From Leucoraja erinacea (lineage: Eukaryota), in contig NW_026576276.1 of NCBI RefSeq assembly GCF_028641065.1, positions 1-64,000 of the forward strand: a stretch of DNA of 64,000 nucleotides. Direction: 5' to 3'. Shown here one piece after another: positions 9,231-59,893 of the stretch. The stretch's first letter is position 1, and each line of letters starts with the position of its first letter. The notes beneath the pieces are model-generated. The model saw nothing but the letters and a program-made list of their open reading frames with translations. It was not told where the DNA came from and did no database searches. The position numbers and the translations under genes are program-made.

Positions 9231-9892
9231 CTTGGTTGCAGAACAATCTCAAGGGGAATTGTGAACAGTTAGAGGTTGTTGTACACGTCAATAGCAATGA
9301 CATAGGTAGACAAAGAGACAGGAACATGCAGAGTGAATATAGGGAATTAGGCAGAAGGTTAAAAAACAAGTCAAGTCAAGTCAAGTCAAGAGAGTTTATT
9401 GGCATGTGTCCCAGATAGGACAATGAAATAGTAAGATTAAAACGAGAACTTACCAGTTTGAAGTTTGATCTGTATTTTATGAGGAGTTACGATGAGGGAT
9501 TTCGTGAAGAACCCCGCTTCCACGCATGCGTGTCATTCTTCAAAGCAGCGGTGTGAGGTCACAGAAACCTATAATGATCTAACATAGTAAGATTATCAAA
9601 GAGATACCAGTTTTTGATATGATCATAAGAGGGTGGGAGCGGAGGGCACGAAATCCCTCATCGTAACTCCTCATAAAATACAGATCAAACTTCAAACTGG
9701 TAAGTTCTCGTTTAATCTTACTATTTTACTTCGGAGTCACGTGAGTGACTTCGTGAAGATTTCAAAGCTCTGTGACCTCATGCCGTGGAACGAGTCCATG
9801 CTTCACAACTGCCTTGGGTATTGGGAGAGAGCATCATTAGTAGTTTTAAAACACAATTATACAAAGAGTTGTGTGGTATAACGAAAAAATAT

Positions 9893-9929
<37 letters not shown>

Positions 9930-12900
9930 GAGAATCATAACCCTGTAACCTATCGGGCAAATTATTTTGTTGAACCTAAAATGTTTTCATAATACAATGA
10001 TGGCTCCAAATTAACTGGTTTATAATACAACCTGTGGAAAAACCCTTTTTTAAAATGACCCTCCTGCCATTCTGAGGATTTGGTCTGTGGGTACCTGTAC
10101 AATATTGCTGCGGATGTTGTTGCAGTCCTGGTGGAATGAGAGTTGAAACATCAGTGTCTATTCCTGCCATTTTTAGGACCTATTTGAGCCACCTTGATAT
10201 AGTTTGAGTCGTGACCCTATCATGCAGTTTCTTGTAAGAGATAAACAACTCCATACTCTGACCTCGAATGTTCTGAGTATATGCTATGTATTGTTAGATG
10301 TGTCTTGTTATACACAGTCGTTTGCCATATGGGTGTACCATAAAATCAAACCCTAGACCCTAGGAACCCGATCTTTTATTAAATCCTGTATGACAACACC
10401 AGTTTCTCGGTGAGATGATCAGGGAGTCCAGGCTCAGTTTGCTTAATGGCTGGACTTGTTGTGCGGTAAATAACACCATGAGCATAACCATCTTCCTGGT
10501 CTGTTACTGAGGTGACAACGCTGTTATGAGCTACAAGCTCCTCAGCATGTTGAGAAAACGACACCCATGTCCCAGATTTCGGAGTACCTGGTTTGCTTAC
10601 CAGGGGTGCGTTCCCACCGCGTGCCGTTCCGATCCTTGTGATAGGTAATTGGAGAGTGCACTTGTGGCACTATTGATGGCACTGTAGCTCCATCGATTAT
10701 CCTAATGGAGGCTTGTTAAAATTCCAATACGACCAGAATGTTCTTGGCCTTTTGGTCGAGATTGTTGTCCAAGCAGTATATGCCCCATTTCTTGATGTGT
10801 CCAAGGTACTGCTTCCGTGTTGACAGTCTTAGTGCAGATGAGATGAGATTCATCGTCCTGTCTGACAGTGTAGTGGGTCTGTTAGACTCTACAAATCAAT
10901 AAATCCATAGTGTTCTGGCATGGATGACTGCCTCCAGTCACTGGATAAATCAATAATTTTTTGGCAATGTTCATAGGGAACATGGTTCTAACACCATCCC
11001 CTGTAAGACTGAAATACCATGATTGAGAAGGTCAGTCGGGTACTCTGAAAATTCCAGATGCCGAGTGTGGTTGAATTTTCCCTAGTACCCCAACGATGGG
11101 TCCGAACAGGGGAAAACCTCACCCTATGGCTTATTTACATAACAATGCCAAGCTGGTTTATGAATTTTAGTACATAATAATGGGGCTAATGATTGCCCCT
11201 TTTGTAAGCTCTATATTGCCAAAGTTCCTCTATTGAGTCAATGCCTGCCATATAGAAACCCGCAACTGACACCAAGTCTATATCAATAATAAGAGCATCC
11301 ATCTTAAAATGAATATCTAGAACAAATGTGTTTAGGGTTAAAATCAATGATAATCCTGCAACCCTACTCTATCTTATATTTAATAAATATGTTCAATCCC
11401 ATCTTTTGTGTACAATTCTTGTAGCACCATGTGGGTTTTAGATTGTTTGGTTTATGTAAGGACAAAATGCCCTTCTGGTGTATGATGTACTGTGGTTATT
11501 GGGATGAGAAAAACCCTATCAGATAACCCTGAATACTGCTGAGATTATATGAATCTGTAGTGATTATATACCATACATAACTATAGTGTTGCAAACCTCC
11601 CTACCCTCGTAGGTCCCTATATTTAAAGAAGAAAACCCCACCCACCTACCTCCATGGTTACCGGGTGGTTTTGTTATTCCCTTGGTTTTTTGAAAATAAG
11701 GTTCTGGTTTAATATTTCTTGTTCGGGGTTGTGTGGGAGGTTGAGGCTTCCGCATCTTCCAGGGTGGCCGCCTTGGCCATACCCTAAAACGGATCCTGCA
11801 GGTTATATTGATTTCTGACACTGCTACTGGTATGAGCCACATTTTTTATGGCCTTGCCTGTGGCTGGTATCATGCTCCAAAATAGGCCCTTGCGCTGGCC
11901 TTGATGAGCCCCAGTGTCTTGGCTTAGTCCACACACGGTTCTTTATTTGCAAATGGTAGCATTTTTGGGGTCCTAGTGCTGGCTGAATGGCCGCCTTCCA
12001 CGTGTAGTTCAGGTCATATTGCATATTATTAAACAGAGCTAGTGCGTCTTGATGGTCTTTGGTTACCTACGTTTAGTCCAGGGTGCTGGTGTGTGCTATG
12101 ATGCCTTCCGTCAATCCCTTGAAGGTTCTCTGGATCTTGAGGTCCTGGTTCCTGATGTTCGTCCATATGCTGCCAAATGCATTGGTTTACACTGGGCACC
12201 TGTAATGCCTCACCGTTGCCAGGTGGCAGATGTCTGGCCAGTGTTTGTAAATTTTTCTTGTTGGCGTTTGTGGCCAGACATATAGTAATACTATTGCCAT
12301 CCTGGATCCAAGTCTACCCATGTTTGACTTGGCTAAAGTAATCAGCCACCATGTCCAGCAGAGTCCCTGCTGTGTTAGGATCATGGGATGCTGTATTACC
12401 AGGCTCTGGCCCATCAGGGTCCTGCCTACTCTTTTTTATAGAGTTAGAGATCTCTAGGGTCCCACACGGGGTACCCATGTGGGGCTTAACTGCTGCCCAC
12501 TTGTCTTTTGTTCTGCGGACCCCTCTTGCAAGTCAACCCAGAACTGATCCACAGTGCTCCCCTCTGATGGGGTAGAAGCATTGTGCAGCCCTCAAAGAGG
12601 TACTGCTGTGGTTTTATCATGTTGGAGCAAGGCTCCATACACCGCTTCTTCCCGCTCCAGCCCTCTCGGGCGCTGGTTGCCGGCGGTTTTATGCAAAGTC
12701 GGACCCTTCTGAGTCCACTACCTTGTTTGATTTGTGTCTAGCCTACCGCTCGGTCACATGGATCTGGGGTGGTGCGGGGCCGACATCGGGCACAGCGGAT
12801 CCCACTACGGTTGATCCAAGTGCCGCTGGCTGCTGCTGGCTGCCCGCTGTTCCATGGTCCTCCTTCTCCAGTTTTGTCCTTCCTTCCGTGAAGTGGATAT

Positions 12901-13094
12901 GGCCGGTGTGGAGGATAACTGGCACAGCTGATTCCATCTATTCCTTTAACCTGACTTCAACGCTCTCAGCACTCCTGGCTGCTCCTTTATCTTAGACCCC
13001 TGGGACCCACCCCCGTACTGACGGTACTGGTCCATTATGGTCGTTGCAGCCGGTCAACCCCACTCTAATGCCCTCAATTCTGGGCACTCCTACT

Positions 13095-13154
13095 TATATG
13101 GTCCTTAGATAAGGGACATATAAGACATTAAAACTGATGATAACAGCTACTATA
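13095..13154 (-). pseudogene. Second, degenerate partial U2 copy (about nt 32-90)
   Basis: TATAGTAGCTGTTATCATCAGTTTTAATGTCTTATATGTCCCTTATCTAAGGACCATATA aligns to U2 stems IIa and IIb. Confidence 0.7.
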
Positions 13155-13164
13155 GTTTTATATA

Positions 13165-13257
13165 ATATATATAGTCCCTAGATAAGGGGTGTATCAGATA
13201 TTAAACTGATAAGAACAGATACTACACTTGATCTTAGCCAAAAAGCCGAGAAGCGAT
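13165..13257 (-). ncRNA. RNU2: U2 snRNA 5' fragment (nt 1 to ~90; no Sm site, so a pseudogene) inside the DIRS element
   Basis: Minus strand reads ATCGCTTCTCGGCTTTTTGGCTAAGATCAAGTGTAGTATCTGTTCTTATCAGTTTAATATCTGATAC, i.e. U2 nt 1-67 with one mismatch, followed by a stem IIb-like CCCCTTATCTAGGGAC. Confidence 0.93.
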
Positions 13258-15216
13258 TATTGTAACTAAAACCCCGCTGGGACCGACCCTGGTACTCACA
13301 TACTGGTCCCTTGTAGTAGATTGCAGCCAGTCAACTGCAAAGTCCTTTGCTGCCGAGAAATGAACTTTCTCACCGTGCTGGAGCGAAGTTGGGCACAGGT
13401 GTTTTCCCCCTCCGGGAATCGATGTGCCCATCTCCTGCAGCTGCCGGCTCCCACTGCTGCTGCCGCTGCCGCCTCCTCCGCGGTTCTCCCGCCGGCCTTC
13501 TGCACCTTACATGGACCTGGTCCATGTCTGCACCTAGAAAGGTAAGTTGAAGGAAACGCAGGGTCTCTTACCTGCTGTTCCCGACTTTCCTTCTCCCGCC
13601 GGTGACCGTCGTTCCCTGTGTCGGGTTCAAGCCGCTTGGACCGACCCCGGTGTTCACGGGCCTGGTCCTTCGCGGCAGTTCCGCAGCCGGTAACCCCGGC
13701 TGTTCCTATGGATCCCCTGGACCCTGGTGCTTACCTTGTGAAGAAGGTTTTCAGCCCGAACGTCCCGTTCCGACTCCATAAGTGCCGCTGCACTCGCTGA
13801 GCGTTTCGAGCCCCGGTACCGCTGTTCCGAGCTGTCTGTCCCGCAGCCTCTGTGCTGGCTGCTAGCGACTGGTCCCAAGCCAGTCTCGTTTGAGACTGGC
13901 ATAGGGACCTTTTTTACTTTGCTTCCCGCCCGGCCGAGAGGTGAATTTTGCCGGTGCGGGAGCAAAGTCGGGCTCAGGTTGTTCCCCTCCAGGGAAACTC
14001 GTGCTGTTGCTGCTGCTGGCTGCTCGCCCTCCACGGGTCTCCCCGCAAGCTTTCCGCAGCCTCCTAAAAGTAAGTAGTAAAAAGGAACGCAGAGTCTCTT
14101 ACCTGCTGTTCCCGACTTTCAAATCTCCCGCTTGGGGAACGCCGTTCCCCCCTGTGTGACTCGTTGCAATGCGTGTAGCGATATGACACGCATGCGTGGA
14201 AGCGGGGTTCTTCACGAAGTCACTCACGTGACTCCGAAGTAAAATCATTGCTTGCTGCAGCACAACAGAATATTGCAGGCAAAAATATAGAACACTCAGT
14301 TCAATATACACATAAATAAGCAGATAAAGTGCAATAGACTGTTACAGTTCATAGTCTGTTTGTTGGTGAGTTTAATAGCCTGATGGCTATGGGGAAGCAG
14401 CTGTTCCTGAACCTGGATGTAATAGATTTCAAGCTCCTGTACCTTCTGCCTGATGGTAGCTGAGAAATGAGTGTGTGGCCAGGATGGTGTGGGTCCTTGA
14501 TGATGTTGGCTGCCTTTTTGAGGCAGCAGCTGTGATCGATCCCTTCGATGGTGGGAAGGTCAGAGCCGATGATGGACTGGGCAGTGGTTACAACATTCGG
14601 CATCCTTTTCCGCTCCTGGACGCTCAAGTTGCGGAACCAAGCCACGATGCTACCAGTCAATATGCTCTCTACTGTGCGCCTATAGATGTTCGAGAGTCCT
14701 CCTTGACATACCGACTCTCCGTAAGCTTCTGAGGAAATCGAGGCGCTGATGTGCCTTCTTTACAATTGCATCAGTGTGCTGGGACCAGGAAAGATCTTCG
14801 GAAATATGAACGCCCAGGAATTAAGTTCTTGACCCTTTCCACCATGATATAAACGGGATTGTGGGTCCCTATCCTACCACTTCCATAGTCCACAATCAGT
14901 TCCTTGGTTTTGCTGGTGTTGAGGGCCAGGTTATTGTGCTGACACCATTTGGTCAATCGGTCGATCTCACTTCTATACTCTGACTCATCCCACAACGATG
15001 GTGTAGTCGGCGCATTTGATGATGGAGTTCGGACTATGTCCGGCTACGCAGTCATGAGTATAGAGTGACTAAAGCAGAGGGCTGAGCACGCAGCCTTGAG
15101 GTGCCCCCGTGCTGATTGTTATCGAGGATGACACATTTCCACCAATACGGACAGACTGTAGTCTGTGGATGAGGAAGTCAAGGATCCAATAGCAGAGGGA
15201 TGCACAGAGACCCAGA

Positions 15217-20964: not shown

Positions 20965-21073
20965 CTGTAAAGTACTATTTGTTGGTGTATTTTACTCCAC
21001 CCACCAGCTGTGATGATGAAGTTGAAGTAAGTTCTGCTTTCATCTCTGGAGCACAGTGAGTGCGTGTAAAGTC

Positions 21074-22093
21074 ATGAAGAACGCGAACCAGGCATGTGCT
21101 GCAAGTGCAGATGCCAACTTTGACTACAACCCACCAGTAATTCTTATCACATTCATCCTAGGATTGGCTGGAAATGTAACTGCCTTGTGGATCTTCTGCT
21201 TTCACGTGAAATCCCGGAGACCAAACGTTGTGTACTCGCTAAACCTGATGATCGCTGACACTCTGATGATATGCTTCCTACCTTTTCGAGCCCATTATTT
21301 TATCAACGGGAAGGACTGGATCTTCGGTGATGTGCCCTGTCGCCTAAACATCTTCATGATCTCCCTAAACCGGGTTGGCAGCGTCATCTTCCTGATGGCC
21401 ATAGCCGTCGATCGCTACTTTAAGGTGGTCCGCCCGTTTCACAAAGCCAACAAGATATCTCCAAGGTGTGCGGCGATGTTAGCAGGAGCCCTGTGGGTCG
21501 TGGCAGTGGGGATTTGTTTACACTTGTTGGTAGAGCCACACGACTTCCATCCAAATAACATGACCAAGACCTACTGTGAAGCATTCAACATGGCCAACCC
21601 TCACGGGGCCACCGCAATTTGGACGAACACTGTGTTTATATTATTTATGTTCATTTTACCGGTCTCCGTTTTAGTTTTCTCCAGCTCCTGCATCATTTGG
21701 AAGTTAAGGCAGATGGAGACTGAGATGAGGCGTAAATATAAGCGCACCGTGAAGCTTGTGATAGCTGTGGTCGTGGTCTTTGTTATTTGTTTCTTGCCCA
21801 CCAACATTGCCGTGGTCGCCGTTATAGTTACAAAGCAAAAACCCACAGACTGCAAGAAATACATCACCGCTGTTAATATCTTCTACAACACGTTGTTCGT
21901 GACATACCTGGACAGTGTGATCGACCCAGTGATTTACTATTTTTCAAATTCAGCATTCAAGGATGCGTTGAAGAAAGCTCTCGTTCATCTAAATTTAAGG
22001 TCTTGCAAATCAGCTACGAGTCAAGATAATGAACAAGGGGAATCCCAAGGACAGACATTGGATCAACAAACGGCCTCTGAAACCCCCCTCTGA
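21074..22093 (+). CDS. Hydroxycarboxylic acid receptor-like class A GPCR (A1), intronless, intact
   Basis: Seven TM segments; GN.TALWIFCFH, ADT...LPFR, WIFGDVPCR, LNRVGS (R3.36), DRY, CFLP, DPVIYY; best recognised as the HCAR1/2/3-OXER1 clade. First ATG at 21074. Confidence 0.92.
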   Translation: MKNANQACAASADANFDYNPPVILITFILGLAGNVTALWIFCFHVKSRRPNVVYSLNLMIADTLMICFLPFRAHYFINGKDWIFGDVPCRLNIFMISLNRVGSVIFLMAIAVDRYFKVVRPFHKANKISPRCAAMLAGALWVVAVGICLHLLVEPHDFHPNNMTKTYCEAFNMANPHGATAIWTNTVFILFMFILPVSVLVFSSSCIIWKLRQMETEMRRKYKRTVKLVIAVVVVFVICFLPTNIAVVAVIVTKQKPTDCKKYITAVNIFYNTLFVTYLDSVIDPVIYYFSNSAFKDALKKALVHLNLRSCKSATSQDNEQGESQGQTLDQQTASETPL

Positions 22094-28130: not shown

Positions 28131-28236
28131 TAAAGTACTATTTGTTGGTGTATTTTACTCCACCCACCAGCTGTGATGATGAAGTTGAAGTAAGTTCTGC
28201 TTTCATCTCTGGAGCACAGTGAGTGCGTGTAAAGTC

Positions 28237-29257
28237 ATGGAGAACGCGAACCAGGCATGTGCTGCAAGTGCAGATGTCAACTTTGACTACAACCCACCAG
28301 TAATTCTTATCACATTCATCCTAGGATTGGCTGGAAATGTAACTGCCTTGTGGATCTTCTGCTTTCACGTTAAATCCCGGAGACCAAACGTTGTGTACTC
28401 GCTAAACCTGATGATCGCTGACACTCTGTTGATGTGCTGCCTACCTTTTCGAGCCCATTATTTTATCAAAGGGAAGGACTGGATCTTCGGTGATGTGCCC
28501 TGTCGCCTAAACATCTTCATGATCTCCCTAAACCGGGTTGGCAGCGTCATCTTCCTCATGGCCATAGCCGTCGATCGCTACTTTAAGGTGGTCCGCCCGT
28601 TTCACAAAGCCAACAAGATATCTCCAAGGTGTGCGGCGATGTTAGCAGGAGCCCTGTGGGTCGTGGCAGTGGGGATTTGTTTACACTTGTTGGTAGAGCC
28701 ACACGACTTCCATCCAAATAACATGACCAAGACCTACTGTGAACCATTCAACATAACCAACCCTCACCAGCTCAGCGCAATTTGGACGGACACTGTGTTT
28801 ATATTCTTTACGTTCATTTTACCGGTCTCCGTTTTAGTTTTCTCCAGCTCCTGCATCATCTGGAAGTTAAGGCAGATGGAGACTGAGACGAGGCGTAAAT
28901 ATAAAACGCACCGTGAAGCTTGTGATAGCTGTGGTCGTGGTCTTTGTTATTTGTTTCTTGCCCACCAACATTGCCGTGGTCGCCGTTATAGTTACAATGC
29001 ACAAAACCACAGACTGCAAGAAATACATCACCGCTGTTAATATCTTCTACAACACGTTGTTCGTGACATACCTGAACAGTGTGATCGACCCAGTGATTTA
29101 CTATTTTTCAAATTCAGCATTCAAGGATGCGTTGAAGAAAGCTCTCATTCATCTAAATTTAAGGTCTTGCAAATCAGCTACGAGTCAGAATAATGAACAA
29201 GGGGAATCCCAAGGACAGACATTGGATCAACAAACGACCTCTGTAACCCCCCTCTGA
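28237..29257 (+). CDS. HCAR-like GPCR A2; single +1 frameshift at ~28903-28906 (pseudogene or sequencing error)
   Basis: Close paralog of A1; ORFs 28219-29040 and 28913-29257 join if one A is removed from tatAAAAcgc. Confidence 0.8.
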
Positions 29258-32238: not shown

Positions 32239-33249
32239 ATGAAAAACACATCTACAGGTCAGAGCCCTCAGAGGAAAGTGACAAAACAACTGCTGAAGTC
32301 TCAGGAACACCAAGAAACTGCAAAACTAACCTCTGGAGTGGATTCTGGAATGGCTACACGATCTAAGACTGAGTTGATCACAAAAGAGAAAACTGAAATG
32401 GAGGAATTAAGGAACTCGGTAAGAGATTTGAAAGATGATGTGAAAGCTGGAAATTTAAACTTGATTGCTGGTAATGAAAAAATACTCGAGGGCATTGGTG
32501 CTCTGCAAAAAAAAGTTGATGATGTGCAAGAAGAGCTAACGGGGAAAATTACTAAGGTGGCAGAAGAGTCCACAAAGATGTTTGAGGCTGTGCATGAAAC
32601 TATTTCCGCAAATGCAACTGCAGTGAAAGATTTGGAAGCTGTTGTGGAAGAGATGGCTGGAGAAATGGAGGCAATGAAGTTAGAATTAGACAGCCTCAAG
32701 AGCCAATTTACAAAAGTATCTGATAAATGTGTTGAACTAGAAGCTCGCTCAAGACGTCAAAATATACGAATACGTGGAGTGAAAGAGGGAGCTGAGGGGG
32801 AAAACGCTCGTGAGTTCACTGCCAATTTAATCAAACATGTACTCAATTTACCTGAGGCACCAGTAATTGAAGAAGCACATCGACTACCTAGATTTAAACC
32901 AAGATTTCAAGGAGAACAAGCCTACCCACGACAGATTATAGTCAAACTTCGGGATATCCCAACAGTGGAAGCGCTGATGAAAAAAATTAAACACGGAGAG
33001 AACATGATGTATGGAGATGATTCTATTAAACTTCTACGGGACTACCCCTATGAGATTGTGCAAAAGAGAAGAAAGTTCTCACAGACCAGAGAAGCTCTCT
33101 ACGGTGTCAAGGGCGTCATATGTGGAGTGTTTTATCCGGCTAGGATGCGTATCACTTTCAAGGGAATCTCAAAAACATTCACTAACCCGGTAGAATCCCT
33201 TAAATACGCTCAAGAAATCGTGGCTAAGGCAGTAACAAAAGAAGATTGA
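32239..33249 (+). CDS. L1 ORF1p (coiled coil, RRM and CTD)
   Basis: Coiled coil followed by ELEARSRRQNIRIRGVKEG, IEEAHR, PRQIIVK, DYP.E...KRRKF and YPARMRITF. Confidence 0.9.
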   Translation: MKNTSTGQSPQRKVTKQLLKSQEHQETAKLTSGVDSGMATRSKTELITKEKTEMEELRNSVRDLKDDVKAGNLNLIAGNEKILEGIGALQKKVDDVQEELTGKITKVAEESTKMFEAVHETISANATAVKDLEAVVEEMAGEMEAMKLELDSLKSQFTKVSDKCVELEARSRRQNIRIRGVKEGAEGENAREFTANLIKHVLNLPEAPVIEEAHRLPRFKPRFQGEQAYPRQIIVKLRDIPTVEALMKKIKHGENMMYGDDSIKLLRDYPYEIVQKRRKFSQTREALYGVKGVICGVFYPARMRITFKGISKTFTNPVESLKYAQEIVAKAVTKED

Positions 33250-34185
33250 TTACCAGACGTCATGAACTAATTAATGTGCTTATTCCCCCAACAAGAATAT
33301 TAGTAGAAAAATGAAAAAAGTGAATAACACCAAGTTTTAAAAATGACTATTCGCAACAGATTTTCCACGAGACTTGTCTAGACATTATAATCTTCTCTCG
33401 AATTTAATTCAAGGACATGCGATGCTTAAACCAGGAAACATTGATAACAGAAGAATGCAGATCTGCTGAAGCTGAGAGAGAGTGAAAAACATCACATGAC
33501 TTACATATTTTTACAGACTTTTACAAAGTATAGAGAATTATTAGTAATTAATAACTAACAATACTAATACATAAACTGATATTGATAAATATGTGTTATA
33601 ACGCAGATAACATTGTAATCTCACAGGTTCCGCAGCTCGAGTGGGGAGGGGAAGAAACTCAGGCACCTGGCTTAATTCCAGGAGCCTGACTCTGGTTAAC
33701 CCTTTCAACGAACAGCTCACTTTTAACAATACTAAAACCAATTACAAATAGTTAAGAGATAAAGAGAGAGGAATATATGTAACTGAATATTTGATTAGAT
33801 TTGATAAGTCGGAATGAAATATATATATATATATATACTGCAATGGGATGAAATAGAACTGATTTGGAAACGGTACCTACCCCCTTGGTTATGAGTAATA
33901 AATTCAGCGGGGCTAACCTCATAACAGCTACGCCGGAAGCAATATTGATGTCGTATCCCACAGACGAGTGGGCCACTCACTACGGTGTCGGAAATCCAGA
34001 CACCGTACATTTATTCTATATACTTTTTTTTTTTATCACAATATGTCACATTTATGTGTTTTTTTTTCAAGGACAATCGCAGAGGGGAACTACCAAGAAA
34101 GTCTATAATATAAATGCTTCCAAAACAACCAGAGTCCTGAGGTATGGATGCACCATAATAAGTAAGGTCATTAAAATTGGTAAAA

Positions 34186-37100
34186 ATGTATGACGACAAT
34201 CAAAGGAAAATGGGAGGAGTCACACTATGTAGTTGGAATATAAGGGGTATTAATGAACCTATTAAAAGGGGCAAGATACTAGCTCAGTTGAAAGCATACA
34301 ACACGGACATTTCGTTCCTACAGGAAACGCATCTTAAACATCAAGATCAGACGAGATTGAGGGCTAACTGGATAGGCCAAACATTTCACTCTTCATTCAC
34401 TTCTAAATCTAGAGGTACTGCAATTATTATCCGTAAAGGAATTCCATTTAAATCAAAGAATACTATTTCAGATAAGGAAGGGAGATATCTTATAGTAGCA
34501 GGAGAGATCAATAATACGCCAATTACGCTGGTAAATATATATGCGCCCAACTTTGATAACCCTCAATTTTTTAATAAAATTCTGAATATAATTGCAGAAT
34601 TTAATTATCAAAATGTTATAATTGGAGGAGACTTCAACTGTGTTTTAGACCCTTATTTAGATAAATCGATGCAAAAACAAAAAGGTAATATGAAATCTAA
34701 AACCAGTGAACTCTTACATACATATATGGAAAACACAAATATAGCAGATGTATGGAGGATTGCAAATCCGACGGGAAGGGACTACTCGTTCTATTCAACG
34801 GTGCATAAAACATATTCACGGATAGACTATTTTCTTGTGGATACAAAATTAATTACACACACTATGAATCCTAAATACCACATTAATGCGATTTCAGATC
34901 ACTCTCCTTTAACCTTTGTTTTAAAATTAGAAGGAATGTCTATGAATAAATCGTTCTGGAGGTTTAATTCGCAACTTTTAAAAGACCCACAAGGGAGTAT
35001 ATATCTAAAAAAACAGATGGACTTATTCTTTGAGATAAATGATACACCAGATATATCCCCCACGCTATTATGGGAATCCTTTAAAGCATTTATTAGAGGA
35101 GTCATTATTTCATTTCAAGCTTATCAAAATAAAAAGAATAAGAAAGAACAAAGACATTTAGAAGAACAAATAAAACAATTAGATACAGATAATGCTAAAG
35201 ATCCAACTATGGATAAACATAATAAAATCCTATTATTGAAATTCAAGCTGAATAAATTATTGTCAGAGAAAGTTATAACACTATTCCAAGTTACAAAACA
35301 AGAACACTTTGAATTCGGGGACAAACCCCACAAACTCTTAGCACGCCAGTTGAAAAAACGGGAAAAAGAGAATGCAATACTAAAGATTAAATCAGATAGT
35401 GGGGAATTATTAACATTACCCAAAGATATCAATAAAAGATTTGCTCAATTTTACGAAAATCTATATACATCTAAAACGTCAATAGATAATAATAAAATTT
35501 CAGAATTTCTGGAAAATTGTAACCTCCCAAAATTAGAATTGAGGGAACAAGAGGAACTGGGAGCAACAATTACTTCTAAGGAGATAGAAGACACAATAAA
35601 AACACTAAAGAATGGCAAAACACCAGGACCAGACGGATTCAGTAGTGAATTCTATAAAGCCTTTTACGATATAGTTACCCCACGATTACAGAAAATGTAT
35701 ACATACGCTTTTAAAGAGCAAAGCTTACCCGAAACATTAGCAGAATCAACGATCACATTAATACTTAAAAAAGACAAAAACATAGAAGAACCAGGCTCAT
35801 ATAGAGCTATTGCTTTGTTAAATACGGATCAAAAAATAATAGCGAAAACACTAGCCAGTAGACTAAGCAGGTACGTTAGTAGATTAATAAATGGAGATCA
35901 AACAGGATTTATACCTAAGAGACACTCATTCAATAATTTGAGACGTTTGCTTAACATAATGCACTCACATAAATCTCACGACCAAGAGTTATCTATTATC
36001 TCACTGGACGCAGAAAAAGCGTTTGATCAAGTAGAATGGGATTATATGATTAAAGTATTGCAAAAATTCCAATTGGGAGAAAACTTTATCGCATGGATAA
36101 AACTATTATATAACAAACCTACGGCTAGAATATTAACTAATAATATTTTATCCTCGAAATTTGAACTATCAAGGGGCAATAGACAAGGATGCTCATTATC
36201 ACCGCTGTTATTTGCTTTGGTAATTGAACCCCTTGCTGAAAAAATAAGAACACATCCGGATATTTATGGTTATAATACAAAATACTCAAAGAATAAAATA
36301 TCCCTATATGCCGATGATGTACTACTGTACATCACAAAACCACAAATTAGTATACCAAACATATTAAATTTAATTGAGGACTTTGGATCCTTTTCGGGAT
36401 ATAGAATAAATTGGAACAAAAGTGAAATTATGTCGATAAAACCAAAAGACTCAACACATCTTCGGAAATTTCCCTTTAAAATAGCTACAGAAAAATTCAA
36501 ATATTTGGGAATTGAAATTACTAGAAATTACCAGGATATGTTTAAAGCCAATTATAATCCCTTACTCAAGAAATTGAATAATTTGATTAAATTCTGGAAA
36601 ACACTTCCGATGTCCTTAATAGGCAGAATAAATGCTATTAAAATGGTTTTCTTACCACAAATTCTATACCTATTTCAATCAATACCTATATATCTCCCAA
36701 AAAAGTTTTAAAAAAAATTGGACTCAGACATTACAAATTTTATATGGGATTATAAATCCCATAGAATACAAATAGCACACCTTAATAAACGAAAAGAGCT
36801 GGGGGGTCTAGCGCTCCCTAATTTTATGTATTATAATTGGGCAGTAAATATTAAAAATATGATTCACCTGCTGGACAATTCTGCACAGCAGGCGGACTGG
36901 ATGGTAATGGAAAAAGGGGACTGCTCCCCGAGTAATATAGGAGCGACCATCCTCTCACCAATAAATTTGAATAATAAAAATTATAATAAAAATCCAATTA
37001 TACATAACACAATAAGAACATGGAAACAAATAAAACAGAATTTAAAATTAAGAAACCTATCTCTTTTAATACCAATAGTCAATAATCCATCGTTTAAACC

Positions 37101-37978
37101 ATCAATCATAGACAAATCATTTATACAATGGGAAAGAATGGGAATTAAAACGCTCGAAGATCTGTATGAATTGGGGAATTTACTATCATTTCAACAACTA
37201 CAACTGAAATATAATTTGAAAAATAACCAATATTTTAAATATCTTCAAATTTGTGATTATCTGAAAAAAACACACAAAAGACTATCATAATATGCCTTCC
37301 GACTTATTGGATGAAGCAATGAAGACCAAGGCGGAATCAGCTAATTTAATATCGTACCTATATAATATCATTTTAAACATAGAAATACCCACAACAGATG
37401 GAATTAGAAAAGATTGGGAACAAGAATTAGCTATAAAAATCTCAAAAGAGACCTGGGATAATCATTTACTACAGGTGCATAAATGTTCGATCAACGTACG
37501 ACATACGCTCATCCAATTTAAAACATTACATAGATTATATTATTCAAAAACTAAATTAAATAAAATCTTCCCTAATGTTTCACCAATCTGTGATAAATGC
37601 CTGTGTCAAGAAGCTACCATAGCGCACTCTTTTGTTTTTTGTACAAAAATCCAAAAATTCTGGTATGAAATATTTGATATTTTTTCAAAATTGATCAAAA
37701 TAAAACTGGTACCAAAACCAGAATGGATTATCTTCGGAATATCGGAAGATAACCCTGAATTAAACGTGTTTCAGAGGAATTTATTTAATTACGGGCTAAT
37801 AATGGGAAAAAAGCTTATACTTAAATTCTGGAAAAATGCGCCGACACCAACAATAAAAATGTGGATATCAAATATGTTTGAAACATTACATCTGGAAGAG
37901 ATGAGATTCCTCCTAGCAGGTAAAGCAGACCAATTCCAAAAGACGTGGTCTATGTTTCTGGACCTATTACAAGTATGA
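34186..37978 (+). CDS. L1 ORF2p (APE endonuclease, RT, CCHC), broken by two homopolymer frameshifts (~36700 and ~37270)
   Basis: SWNIRG, LQETH, GGDFN, SRIDYF, SDH; PGPDG, SLDAEKAFD, RQGCSLSPLLF, LYADD; CDKC..EATIAHSFVFC. Confidence 0.93.
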
Positions 37979-54137: not shown

Positions 54138-55136
54138 TCATTTGTCGATCCGCTGCAGTCCATCCATCGTGTCCTCTTGTCCAGTTTCTTGACTTATGCC
54201 CGATCTGCCCGACTTTAATTTCAGACGAACGAGAGCTTTCATCAAGGCGTTGTTAAATGACGAATTAAAAACACAATGAACAACGGGATTCACCATACTG
54301 TTCATGTAAGTCAGAAACAATGTATTATAAAATAAACGTATTGCTATTTTAAACGCATGACAGTGTCGGGCACTTCTTAGCTTCGTGACTACAACTGCGA
54401 CAAAAGCAATATTGGTAGGCATGAAGCAAATGATGAAAATTGCCGCCACAGTTATCACAATCCTCACAGTCCGTTTATATTTCCGCCACGCGTTGCGTTT
54501 GATCTGTCTTAACTTCCAAGTGATGCAGGAGGTACAGAACAGAATAACTGAAGCTGGTAGAATACAGAAAAAGATTATGAAAACAATTCCACTCCAAATA
54601 CTTGTGCCACTTAGAGGGCCGTTTATTTTGAAGGACTCACAGAGCGTCACATTATTATGCTCCGAGTCGTGTCGTTCTGTCACCAAATGCATCCAAATTG
54701 CCACTGCCATAATCCACAGAGCGGCTGCAACCTTCACTGCGCACTTTGCAGATATCTTGTTAACTTTGTGGAGAGGGTGGATCACCTTCAAATAGCGATC
54801 GATGGCTATAACCATTAGGAAACAGATACTGCCAGTCCGATTTATGGAAATCATGAATAGATCCATGCGGCAAAGAACATCACCATAAACCCATCCCTTC
54901 ACGTGTAACAAATAACCAATTCTAACGGGTAGGCAGATGATTAGAAGCATGTCGGCAATGGCCAGATTCAGTGAGTACACGGTGTTTGGATTCCAGCGTT
55001 TTACATGAAAGAGGAAGATCCACAGAGCGATTGCATTTCCAACAAACCCCAGGACGACGGTGACACAAATGACAAGTGTGGTGTGGGACGAGAAGTCGGT
55101 TTCATCCAGAACACATTGCTGAGCGGACCTCGCCAT
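54138..55136 (-). CDS. HCAR-like class A GPCR (B), intact ORF
   Basis: GNAIALWIFLFH, ADMLLIICLP, INRTGS, DRY, CESF, CFMP, NPVVH. ATG at 55136 (acaATGG) aligns with paralog starts; an upstream in-frame ATG lies at 55184. Confidence 0.9.
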   Translation of the reverse strand: MARSAQQCVLDETDFSSHTTLVICVTVVLGFVGNAIALWIFLFHVKRWNPNTVYSLNLAIADMLLIICLPVRIGYLLHVKGWVYGDVLCRMDLFMISINRTGSICFLMVIAIDRYLKVIHPLHKVNKISAKCAVKVAAALWIMAVAIWMHLVTERHDSEHNNVTLCESFKINGPLSGTSIWSGIVFIIFFCILPASVILFCTSCITWKLRQIKRNAWRKYKRTVRIVITVAAIFIICFMPTNIAFVAVVVTKLRSARHCHAFKIAIRLFYNTLFLTYMNSMVNPVVHCVFNSSFNNALMKALVRLKLKSGRSGISQETGQEDTMDGLQRIDK

Positions 55137-55670
55137 TGTGGGACAGTCACACAGCCAGAGCGCTGCAGAGGGCAGAGAGCTCATGCAAAGAGGAACAACC
55201 GTTTCTGCTCACGCTGCAGGGTTGGGGTGAAACAGAGCACCAATTAGCTGTGTTGTAAACACATTGGCAATATCATGGACAGCGATACCTAGAATTTAGA
55301 AATAATTAGTCATCGCTGCGGTACACCATGATGGTTTTTTCAATGGAAAACATAGAATAGGGAAGAGTACAGCGTGCCATGCCAAACGTGCAGGCAAGAT
55401 AAACCAATCTCATCTGTCTGCACATGATCCATATCCTCCATTTCCTGAATATCCATGTGCCTATCTAAAAGCCTCTTAAATGCCACTATCAATTTGACTT
55501 CACAACCACCCCCAGCAGCGCATTCCAGGCACTCGCCACTCGCTGTGTAAAGAGCTTGTCCCACACATCTCCTTTAAACCTTGTCCCTCTCATCTTAAAG
55601 CTATGCTCGCTCCCGTTTGATATTTCCACCCTGAGGAATGTCCACCCCATCCATGCCTCACATAATTTTA

Positions 55671-58837: not shown

Positions 58838-58858
58838 GTCTGAGATTCCCGCAACTCG

Positions 58859-59893
58859 ATGATAATGGAGGATTTTGTGAATTTAACCCAGCAGTGCGCG
58901 CCCCATGAAGAGAGCAGCTCAGCATACAACTCGCCGATCATCATTATTACATGCATCCTCGGCTTCATTGGCAACGCCATTGCTTTGTGGATCTTCTGCT
59001 TTCATGTCAAGACCTGGAAACCGAACACGGTCTATTCCCTGAACCTGGCGATTGCGGATACACTTTTAATCTGCTGCCTCCCTTTCCGTGCCGGCTACTA
59101 CATACGCAAGAAGGACTGGATCTTTGGAGATGTGGCCTGTCGCCTGAACATCTTCATGATCTCTTTAAACCGCATTGGCAGCATCATCTTCCTGATGGTG
59201 ATAGCCATCGACCGCTACTTTAAGGTGGTCCATCCCCAGCACAAGGCAAACAAGCTGACCCCGAGGTGTGCGGCCAAGATAGCAGGAGCCCTGTGGGTCA
59301 TGGCGGTGGCAATTTGCACGCACTTGTTGGTGGAGCGGCACGACTTCCAGCGAAACAACTCGACCTTTTGCGAGCCCTTCAACATCGACCACCCTCTGAA
59401 TCCCACCGCAATTTGGACCGACGCCGTGTTTATTTTCTTCAAGTTCATCTTGCCGGTCTCCGTTATACTTTTCTCCACCTCGTGCATCATCTGGAGGTTA
59501 AGGCAGATGGAGAGCGATATGAGAGGGAAATATAAACGTGCCACCAAGCTTGTGATAGCAGTGGCAGCGGTTTTTATAGTCTGTTTCCTGCCCACCAATA
59601 TTGCTGTGGTCGCCGTTTTGATCACTCGACTCAGAAGTTCGGTGGACTGCAAGTCCTATGTCATTGCAGTCAATATCTTTTATAATACTTTATTCATGAC
59701 GTATCTAAACAGCGTTATCGACCCTGTTATTTACTACTTTTCGAGTTCGGCGTTTAAAGGCGCGTTGAAGAAAGCTCTCGCCCCTTTCAACGTCAGTTTG
59801 TCCAAATCAACCACCGATCAAGAAATGGACCCACGCGAGTCTAAAGCAGAACCCTCGAAAGATCGACACCTCAGCTCTGATATACTTCTCTGA
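58859..59893 (+). CDS. Hydroxycarboxylic acid receptor-like class A GPCR (D), intact; probably the most conserved member
   Basis: GNAIALWIFCFHVKTWK, LNLAIAD, CLPFR..YY, DWIFGDVACR, NRIGSIIFL..AIDRYFKVVHP, CFLP, YLNSVIDPVIYYFSS. Confidence 0.95.
   Translation: MIMEDFVNLTQQCAPHEESSSAYNSPIIIITCILGFIGNAIALWIFCFHVKTWKPNTVYSLNLAIADTLLICCLPFRAGYYIRKKDWIFGDVACRLNIFMISLNRIGSIIFLMVIAIDRYFKVVHPQHKANKLTPRCAAKIAGALWVMAVAICTHLLVERHDFQRNNSTFCEPFNIDHPLNPTAIWTDAVFIFFKFILPVSVILFSTSCIIWRLRQMESDMRGKYKRATKLVIAVAAVFIVCFLPTNIAVVAVLITRLRSSVDCKSYVIAVNIFYNTLFMTYLNSVIDPVIYYFSSSAFKGALKKALAPFNVSLSKSTTDQEMDPRESKAEPSKDRHLSSDILL

Follow-up and report, generated by a model that had tools for sequence, protein, structure and literature searches.

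Two successive acquisitions of U2 snRNA sequence at one site of a DIRS retrotransposon family in Leucoraja erinacea, probably through template switching

The window analysed here, 64,000 nucleotides of Leucoraja erinacea DNA (assembly GCF_028641065.1, contig NW_026576276.1, positions 1 to 64,000), contains two pieces of the 5' domain of U2 snRNA inside a DIRS retrotransposon, which raises the questions of how an snRNA came to lie there twice and whether it serves the element. We consider both pieces to be neutral passengers, likely copied when the DIRS reverse transcriptase (RT) switched to U2 snRNA and back on two occasions, and put the probability of this reading at roughly 0.8.

The carrier is a non-autonomous DIRS1-like copy of about 4.8 kb on the minus strand (9426-14245), delimited by ends shared among copies and lacking a target site duplication (TSD). 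Its 5' boundary at 14245 (within a few bases) is common to 28 of 29 other fetched copies, the remaining one beginning 20 nt inside, and for long loci with both ends found, 35/40 share ends with unrelated flanks, a T-run at each end and no TSD. The left inverted terminal repeat (14183-14245, inverted pairs I2 and I3), the right inverted terminal repeat with its extension (9426-9536, pairs I1 and I2 and the end motif) and an internal complementary region (9647-9759) that pairs with the outer ends of both terminal repeats through I1 (67 nt, 100%) and I3 (37 nt, 100%) all lie on the minus strand. This is the DIRS1 layout, which passages of PMC7192593 define by inverted terminal repeats that are not identical and by an internal complementary region.

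Coding remnants included the N-terminal part of the RT frame (11240-11393, minus strand; tblastn with L041 probes, 58-63% identity, a frameshift and 1 stop) and a tyrosine recombinase with 8 stops and one frameshift (10038-10875, minus strand; 67% to the L147 frame, E 3e-101), the L147 frame itself matching Pfam Phage_integrase PF00589 (E 4.8e-8). A C-terminal remnant of the RT frame (10888-11076, minus strand; tblastn with an L059 probe, 40%, E 1.5e-9) is presumably methylase-like. Related DIRS families keep RVT_1 (L041, E 2e-6), whereas the window element retains the flanking RT remnants only and gave no tblastn match to the RT/RNase H probe, so that its RT/RNase H core appears from the sequence to have been deleted. 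Pfam searches of 18 short frames of the element returned nothing informative, and identity was assigned via less broken relatives. With its RT core apparently lost and 8 stops in its recombinase, the element is regarded as non-autonomous. All three remnants share the strand of U2 and, with the inverted termini and internal complementary region, bear out the description of the insert in an earlier note on this DNA as sense U2 within a DIRS element. The window also holds a cluster of intronless rhodopsin-family receptor genes (21026-22093, 28189-29040, 54138-55208 and 58844-59893; Pfam 7tm_1, E 1e-38 or better) and a LINE with endonuclease and RT at 32239-37978.

The U2 pieces are flanked by leader repeat unit A on the 5' side (13274-13335, minus strand; repeat family D4 and alignment) and unit A' on the 3' side (12999-13058, minus strand; repeat search and alignment). 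Both are part of a variable tandem array found in U2-less copies too, and A and A' may or may not represent one long TSD. The GTGAGT donor previously noted upstream of U2 is present as a donor-like hexamer on the minus strand (13299-13294) but belongs to the leader repeat unit, occurring also in the U2-less copies L142, L146, L147 and L153, and is older than the U2 capture. A second leader unit is repeated at 13545-13589 and 14076-14120 with a spacing of 531 nt; on the element strand it has a donor-like site 38-39 nt before an acceptor-like one, too short for an ordinary intron, and an additional donor-like site lies on the opposite strand. In the older lineages L069, L141, L147 and L153 the leader includes a sense CR1-like 3' tail fragment about 90-170 nt downstream of the flank motif used below, where the window's lineage has other sequence; this fragment is possibly another captured RNA. 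At L165/L166 (C2, 3.6 kb apart) the 5' part of a two-copy element has been duplicated head-to-tail in tandem.

An Rfam U2 match (104.3 bits, E 5.8e-20) lay on the minus strand at 13257-13135, and alignment resolved two copies of different age. The younger, the product of the second capture, covers U2 nt 1-96 (13160-13257, minus strand) and ends directly before the Sm site, while the older (13095-13157, minus strand) covers nt 29-90 and is the remnant of a first capture that originally spanned nt 1-90. The earlier note was thus right that the first piece starts at nt 1 and stops short of the Sm site, and that nt 1-67 has a single mismatch, which also holds against the host's own U2; its limit of nt 67 was too short, and the degenerate second piece that it placed at about nt 32-90 has limits of nt 29-90. 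The host reference was retrocopy L032, from which 8 other independent retrocopies differ at 0-3 positions over nt 1-90, with nt 38-186 backed by 8 interrupted true genes at 97-100% identity. Against this reference the younger window copy has 5 substitutions and a 2-nt insertion, two of the changes breaking stem IIb pairs, and in basal two-copy members such as L043 it is identical to host U2 (0/96 differences). The older copy has 7 mismatches and 1 gap across nt 34-90, and its derived changes and 3' junction are identical to those of the single decayed copy of L174/L169/L149. The window copy, flanked by DIRS leader, shows none of the further marks of a true U2 gene (Sm site, 3' half, upstream promoter, 3' box), and the 3' halves of true genes look different. 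As first reported, the window U2 has no poly(A) and no TSD, and a by-eye comparison with true U1 and U5 genes revealed no block resembling an snRNA promoter upstream of it. U2 is also better preserved than the broken DIRS frames, as had been remarked, because it arrived late.

The genome of the same species (2.19 Gb) was searched with a 600-nt stretch, and the best 40 of 847 candidates all matched at 95-100%. A 34-nt U2 motif had 241 exact matches, the first 100 of which comprised 88 two-copy and 3 single-copy family members, 5 members of other DIRS families and 4 Keno-like heads. A U2-free flank motif had 388 exact matches, so the family has at least 388 copies; among the first 100 of these, 66 had two U2 copies, 24 had one and 10 had none. 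The suggestion that U2 might sit in this DIRS family throughout was therefore borne out for 90/100 copies, with nine further DIRS sites carrying snRNA. Copies without U2, which the earlier note had coupled with a TSD as the mark of a one-off insertion, do exist (10/100), but they represent the pre-capture state, and a TSD was not found.

These members form a nested series, from no U2 (L142, L147) through a perfect single U2 nt 1-90 (L069) and decayed single copies to two copies. The single-copy members gain changes in order (L132, L164, L148, L163, L174, L169), down to 80% identity in L145, and the earliest four substitutions of the first copy include one at nt 33, where the branch-point recognition sequence begins. 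The two-copy member L043 equals the single-copy L174/L169/L149 plus a perfect U2 nt 1-96, with the old 5' junction retained exactly and the old copy surviving from nt 29 onward. The fresh copy of L043 reaches 6 nt past the old copy's 3' end, and therefore a real U2 template was needed. A 650-nt block lying separately downstream gave a tree with a none-one-two ladder (53 rows; of 58 rows picked, 5 were without the block and were dropped). Label changes numbered 3, against 20.8 on average after shuffling. The tree is unrooted, with polarity taken from closeness to host U2, and its two-copy group requires 2 label changes, not 1, at a weakly supported node. The order of events at the leader site was a capture, stepwise decay while the family spread, and a second capture in register with the old 5' end, and the resulting two-copy lineage gave rise to the window's element. 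The traceable order of two captures upholds the proposal that copies of different age meant recurrent acquisition. Tandem duplication of one U2 copy within the element was rejected, since the new copy has nt 91-96, which were never in the old one, and is free of the old copy's changes. Derivation of single-copy members from two-copy members by deletion was rejected for those members with derived changes across nt 1-90, and individual loci could be deletion products.

Genome-wide, 11 captures were counted at 10 DIRS sites, 8 of U2 (the leader site twice, L031, L033, L041, L059, L086 and L325), 2 of U1 (L204 and L205) and 1 of U5 (L180). U2 is full length in the L031 family and in L033, and spans nt 1-95 in L041, nt 1-91 in L059, nt 1-93 in the L086 family and nt 1-about 172 in L325, where it lies in a copy already bearing the L086 insert. 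All 11 captures begin at snRNA nt 1 with neither a poly(A) tail nor a classic TSD, and the orientation is sense at 10/10 sites, which would occur by chance with a probability of 2^-10, about 0.001. For U1, 6 of 30 fetched loci (of 42 matches) were in DIRS and represented the two events, nt 1-133 and nt 1-139, and a census by exact 5' motif added no event (1/26 in DIRS, again L204). The U1 captured at L204 is a variant whose match is the gene pair L195/L196, so this variant gene was likely transcribed. Five of 11 U5 matches were one full-length sense insert with a 3-nt duplication in the leader of the U2-less branch of the window's own DIRS family (L142:2588-2701, L162:6826-6940, L181, L187 and L189), a few bases upstream of an older CR1-like tail fragment.

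One of 11 U4 matches lay in DIRS (L256:1501-1684, minus strand), with nt 6-72 fused to a 3' end that we take to be CR1-like, and was excluded from the count as a LINE-type chimera. A second U2-like match in L078 was excluded as an internal duplication, and L041/L042 and L036-L038 were each counted once. U6 was found in DIRS at 0/30 fetched loci (of 48) and 0/17 exact 5' matches, together 36 distinct loci. U2 retrocopy sites outside DIRS numbered about 6-7 among the loci examined; element-amplified captures are easier to find than single retrocopies. With probes drawn from DIRS families already seen, which distant DIRS could escape, DIRS background was low, amounting to none of the 93 kb surrounding U6 loci, 0.3% of the window once the element is set aside and 5.6% beside other DIRS copies. 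The best 42-48 candidates were scored in the Rfam searches, and in 30 long loci of the family and a further 20 DIRS loci U1, U2, U4 and U5 were the only RNA families found.

Eight sites could be assessed against empty sister copies, leaving out L086 and the first leader capture, which were without an exact pre-insertion copy. The sisters share only 73-98% identity, so the sizes given for deletions and the extents of microhomology are approximate. Six of the eight had lost DIRS sequence, namely about 12 nt (L033), 31-35 nt (L031), 41 nt (L204), 42 nt (L205), 140 nt (L041) and 358 nt (L059), and two, the U5 site and L325, were near-blunt with a 3-nt duplication. At the cap-side junction DIRS bases match the first 2-5 nt of the snRNA at 6/8 sites, 1 nt at one and none at one, while the non-cap junction shows little microhomology against the same 73-98% identical sisters. 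Five of the eight DIRS U2 events end at nt 90-96, immediately before the Sm site, and every U2 event with this end lies in DIRS. Both full-length U2 copies end in 3-4 A absent from the gene sequence, perhaps a short oligo(A) on the RNA. No TSD with an L1-type cleavage site was found at the 8 assessable DIRS sites, the largest duplication being 3 nt, and LINE-type controls in the same genome (L039 and many U6 loci) have long A-tails and TSDs.

The sense-only orientation, lost element sequence, run-off to the cap and short return homology fit two template switches. During minus-strand synthesis the DIRS RT would leave the DIRS RNA, land on an snRNA and copy it to the cap; for U2 the landing point would mostly be in the A/U-rich linker that immediately precedes the Sm site (nt 90-96). 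It would then return to DIRS RNA through 1-5 nt of microhomology, usually skipping some DIRS sequence, and in the second capture would have used 29 nt of the old U2 for its return. Repeated template-switch capture was one of two possibilities raised in the earlier note, and it is supported by the two ages, the traceable order and the nine other DIRS sites. The snRNAs would be encountered in a cytoplasmic particle or RNP. U6 normally stays out of the cytoplasm, through which U1, U2, U4 and U5 pass, and a cytoplasmic encounter would explain why Sm-class RNAs with a cytoplasmic phase were captured and U6 was not. Retroviral packaging of host snRNAs was reportedly described by Giles et al. in 2004. 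For Dictyostelium, passages of PMC7192593 describe a DIRS RT that works in trans and a cytoplasmic accumulation of DIRS cDNA, and action in trans makes non-autonomous carriers possible. MLV packages pre-U2 taken from the cytoplasm (passages of PMC4378196). The cytoplasmic reading is the weakest step, because retroviruses package U6 as well (passages of the review PMC4752605).

A bolder version, which we regard as unlikely, holds that vertebrate DIRS elements replicate in cytoplasmic particles with a selective uptake of Sm-class snRNAs, chiefly U2 and excluding U6, so that the captures would be a fossil record of this cargo, and that U2 plays a genuine part in the DIRS cycle, its branch-point arm being weakly maintained after capture in cis. 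U2 as a primer was set aside, as a retained primer would be expected to be terminal and antisense and these pieces are internal and sense.

Improbable, and largely refuted, is the explanation that LINE machinery (L1/Tx1, CR1/L2) or break repair placed 3'-truncated, tailless snRNA retrocopies into DIRS, which then spread them. LINE insertions likewise show short microhomology, and LINEs are active in this genome, as seen from A-tailed U6 and U1 copies; they can place snRNA into DIRS, because the L256 chimera sits inside one. Mammalian 3'-truncated snRNA copies are L1-made and broken in single-stranded segments with junction homology, and TSDs accompany 70-100% of them (passages of PMC4476161), whereas here duplications were at most 3 nt at 8/8 assessable sites, with deletions at 6. 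Insertion by LINEs further predicts either orientation, yet 10/10 sites are sense, and it does not account for all five U2 events that stop at nt 90-96 lying within DIRS, for the old 5' junction restored exactly by the second capture or for the absence from DIRS (0/36) of U6, the commonest LINE cargo here. The earlier note's own alternative of a one-off L1-mediated U2 pseudogene is likewise improbable, as U2 is family-wide and no TSD occurs at assessable sites.

That the U2 5' domain is a selected module, such as a U2-protein decoy or a cis-acting control of splicing or export, whose failing first copy was replaced by the second capture, is also improbable. U2 is carried by 90/100 sampled members, the two-copy lineage is the largest (66), and splice-site-like motifs lie within the leader. 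In the new copy nt 32-46 are unchanged across the 66 copies, where 3.9 events (P 0.02) or 2.3 variable sites (P 0.10) were expected, in a stretch that was picked after looking and with 31/175 flank windows as quiet as nt 32-66. Over the whole copy, however, the rate is that of the flanks: by parsimony on the 66 two-copy members sampled by flank motif, the new copy has undergone 24 non-CpG changes (24.6 expected from the flanks) and the old copy 23 (17.8 expected). The first copy altered nt 33 within its first few substitutions and its lineages kept spreading, with the branch-point region altered in 23/24 single-copy members. Expanding two-copy lineages carry changes that break stems IIa or IIb, or are without nt 1-24, and U2-less members spread too (10/100 sampled). 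Other captures fall at unrelated positions, within gag or RT frames, and the cargo includes U1 and U5. The flank rate of the new copy together with early branch-point loss in the first therefore indicates a passenger and not the functional RNA module that the earlier note had considered.

That the pieces are the remnant of a U2-targeting Keno or Utopia insertion, also entertained earlier, can be dismissed: Keno-like Tx1 elements are present (a Tx1-like ORF1 carries a U2 nt 1-52 head in 4 of the first 100 U2 matches, and 8/24 U2 3'-half matches are genes interrupted at nt 37/38) and the older copy's visible start at nt 29-34 is near that point, but this copy derives from an uninterrupted nt 1-90 copy (L069, L164, L174), the U2 copies are neither separated nor flanked by LINE sequence or an A-tail, and the junctions at nt 90, 96 and 29 differ from Keno's 38 and 52, so that the capture series excludes it. 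The Keno-like dispersed copies, with the U2 nt 1-52 head before a zinc-knuckle ORF1, are L065, L088, L101 and L103, and the interrupted U2 genes are L310, L312, L314-L316, L319, L320 and L326. An intact U2 gene was found neither among the best 47 Rfam matches (30 of them fetched) nor among 24 matches to the 3' half. In L279, L282, L284, L295 and L303, U1 5' pieces reaching at most nt 56 stand before an apparent Keno-like 5' end, and in L279 the U1 piece stands behind a U2 piece, a SINEU-like stacking of snRNA heads.

Capture by DIRS template switching, the reading we prefer, has some bearing beyond this locus. DIRS replication is poorly known and its primer is unknown, according to passages of PMC7192593. 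Sense-only snRNA captures are indirect evidence that the DIRS RT switches templates in the LTR-like manner and that it meets Sm-class snRNAs and not U6, which bears on the place or complex in which it works. The genome keeps a rare complete series of empty, captured, decayed and re-captured states. Since 96 of the first 100 exact U2 5'-domain matches were DIRS passengers and 4 were Keno heads, U2 gene counts or probes in such genomes would mostly report retrotransposons. Titles and abstracts, with Repbase Reports, subscription journals and supplements outside the search, gave no template-switch capture by DIRS and no snRNA cargo in DIRS, and a curated DIRS entry noting U2 could exist. The earlier note had ranked the locus as a candidate undescribed system; the U2 of the window is instead a passenger, and its presence in DIRS probably reflects a mechanism known for LTR elements and mRNAs.

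Among known systems, Keno (Tx1 clade, U2-targeting) resembles the present case in that U2 fragments are tied to a retroelement, here in the same genome, but it inserts into U2 genes at nt 37/38 and the window U2 is without Tx1 sequence (passages of PMC4494074). Cassandra, Helenus and Ajax are likewise non-autonomous retrotransposons with a small-RNA sequence family-wide, but in passages of PMC10886601 their tRNA or 5S part lies in the LTR with promoter motifs kept, whereas the DIRS U2 is internal and not conserved, and U2 has no internal promoter (passages of PMC4494074). Modules of the Cassandra/TRIMp3 type are recognised by cargo more conserved than its flanks, and the DIRS U2 showed 24 changes against 24.6 expected. 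L1-made snRNA pseudogenes and U/L1 chimeras share the nt-1 start and 3' truncation in single-stranded segments (passages of PMC4476161), and in SINEU U1/U2 heads were added repeatedly by template switch (passages of PMC4494074). These are made at the insertion site, with TSDs and the snRNA at the 5' end of the insert (PMC4476161, PMC4494074, in part), unlike the DIRS-borne snRNA, which is internal and without TSD. Retroviral packaging offers a possible template source, pre-U2 being enriched in MLV virions (passages of PMC4378196). MLV and RSV take U6 too (passages of PMC4752605) and DIRS here is without U6, and the retroviral studies show packaging (PMC4378196, PMC4752605, in part), whereas the DIRS case consists of heritable chimeras in hundreds of copies.

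The closest likeness is to LTR-mediated retroposition (Tan et al. 2016, PMC5131818, passages thereof), in which host RNA is likewise found inside a retrotransposon, replacing part of the carrier, with later non-autonomous spread; the short junction microhomology described there has an approximate counterpart here, chiefly on the cap side. The carrier there is an integrase LTR element and here a tyrosine-recombinase (YR) DIRS, the cargo there is mRNAs and here an snRNA always from nt 1, and the microhomology has a median of 6 nt there and 0-5 nt here. The double capture at one site is a feature of the DIRS case unlike that system, and the words "DIRS" and "snRNA" have 0 occurrences in PMC5131818. 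DIRS capture appears to work like LTR-mediated retroposition, and it is not a member of that system because its carrier is a YR element.
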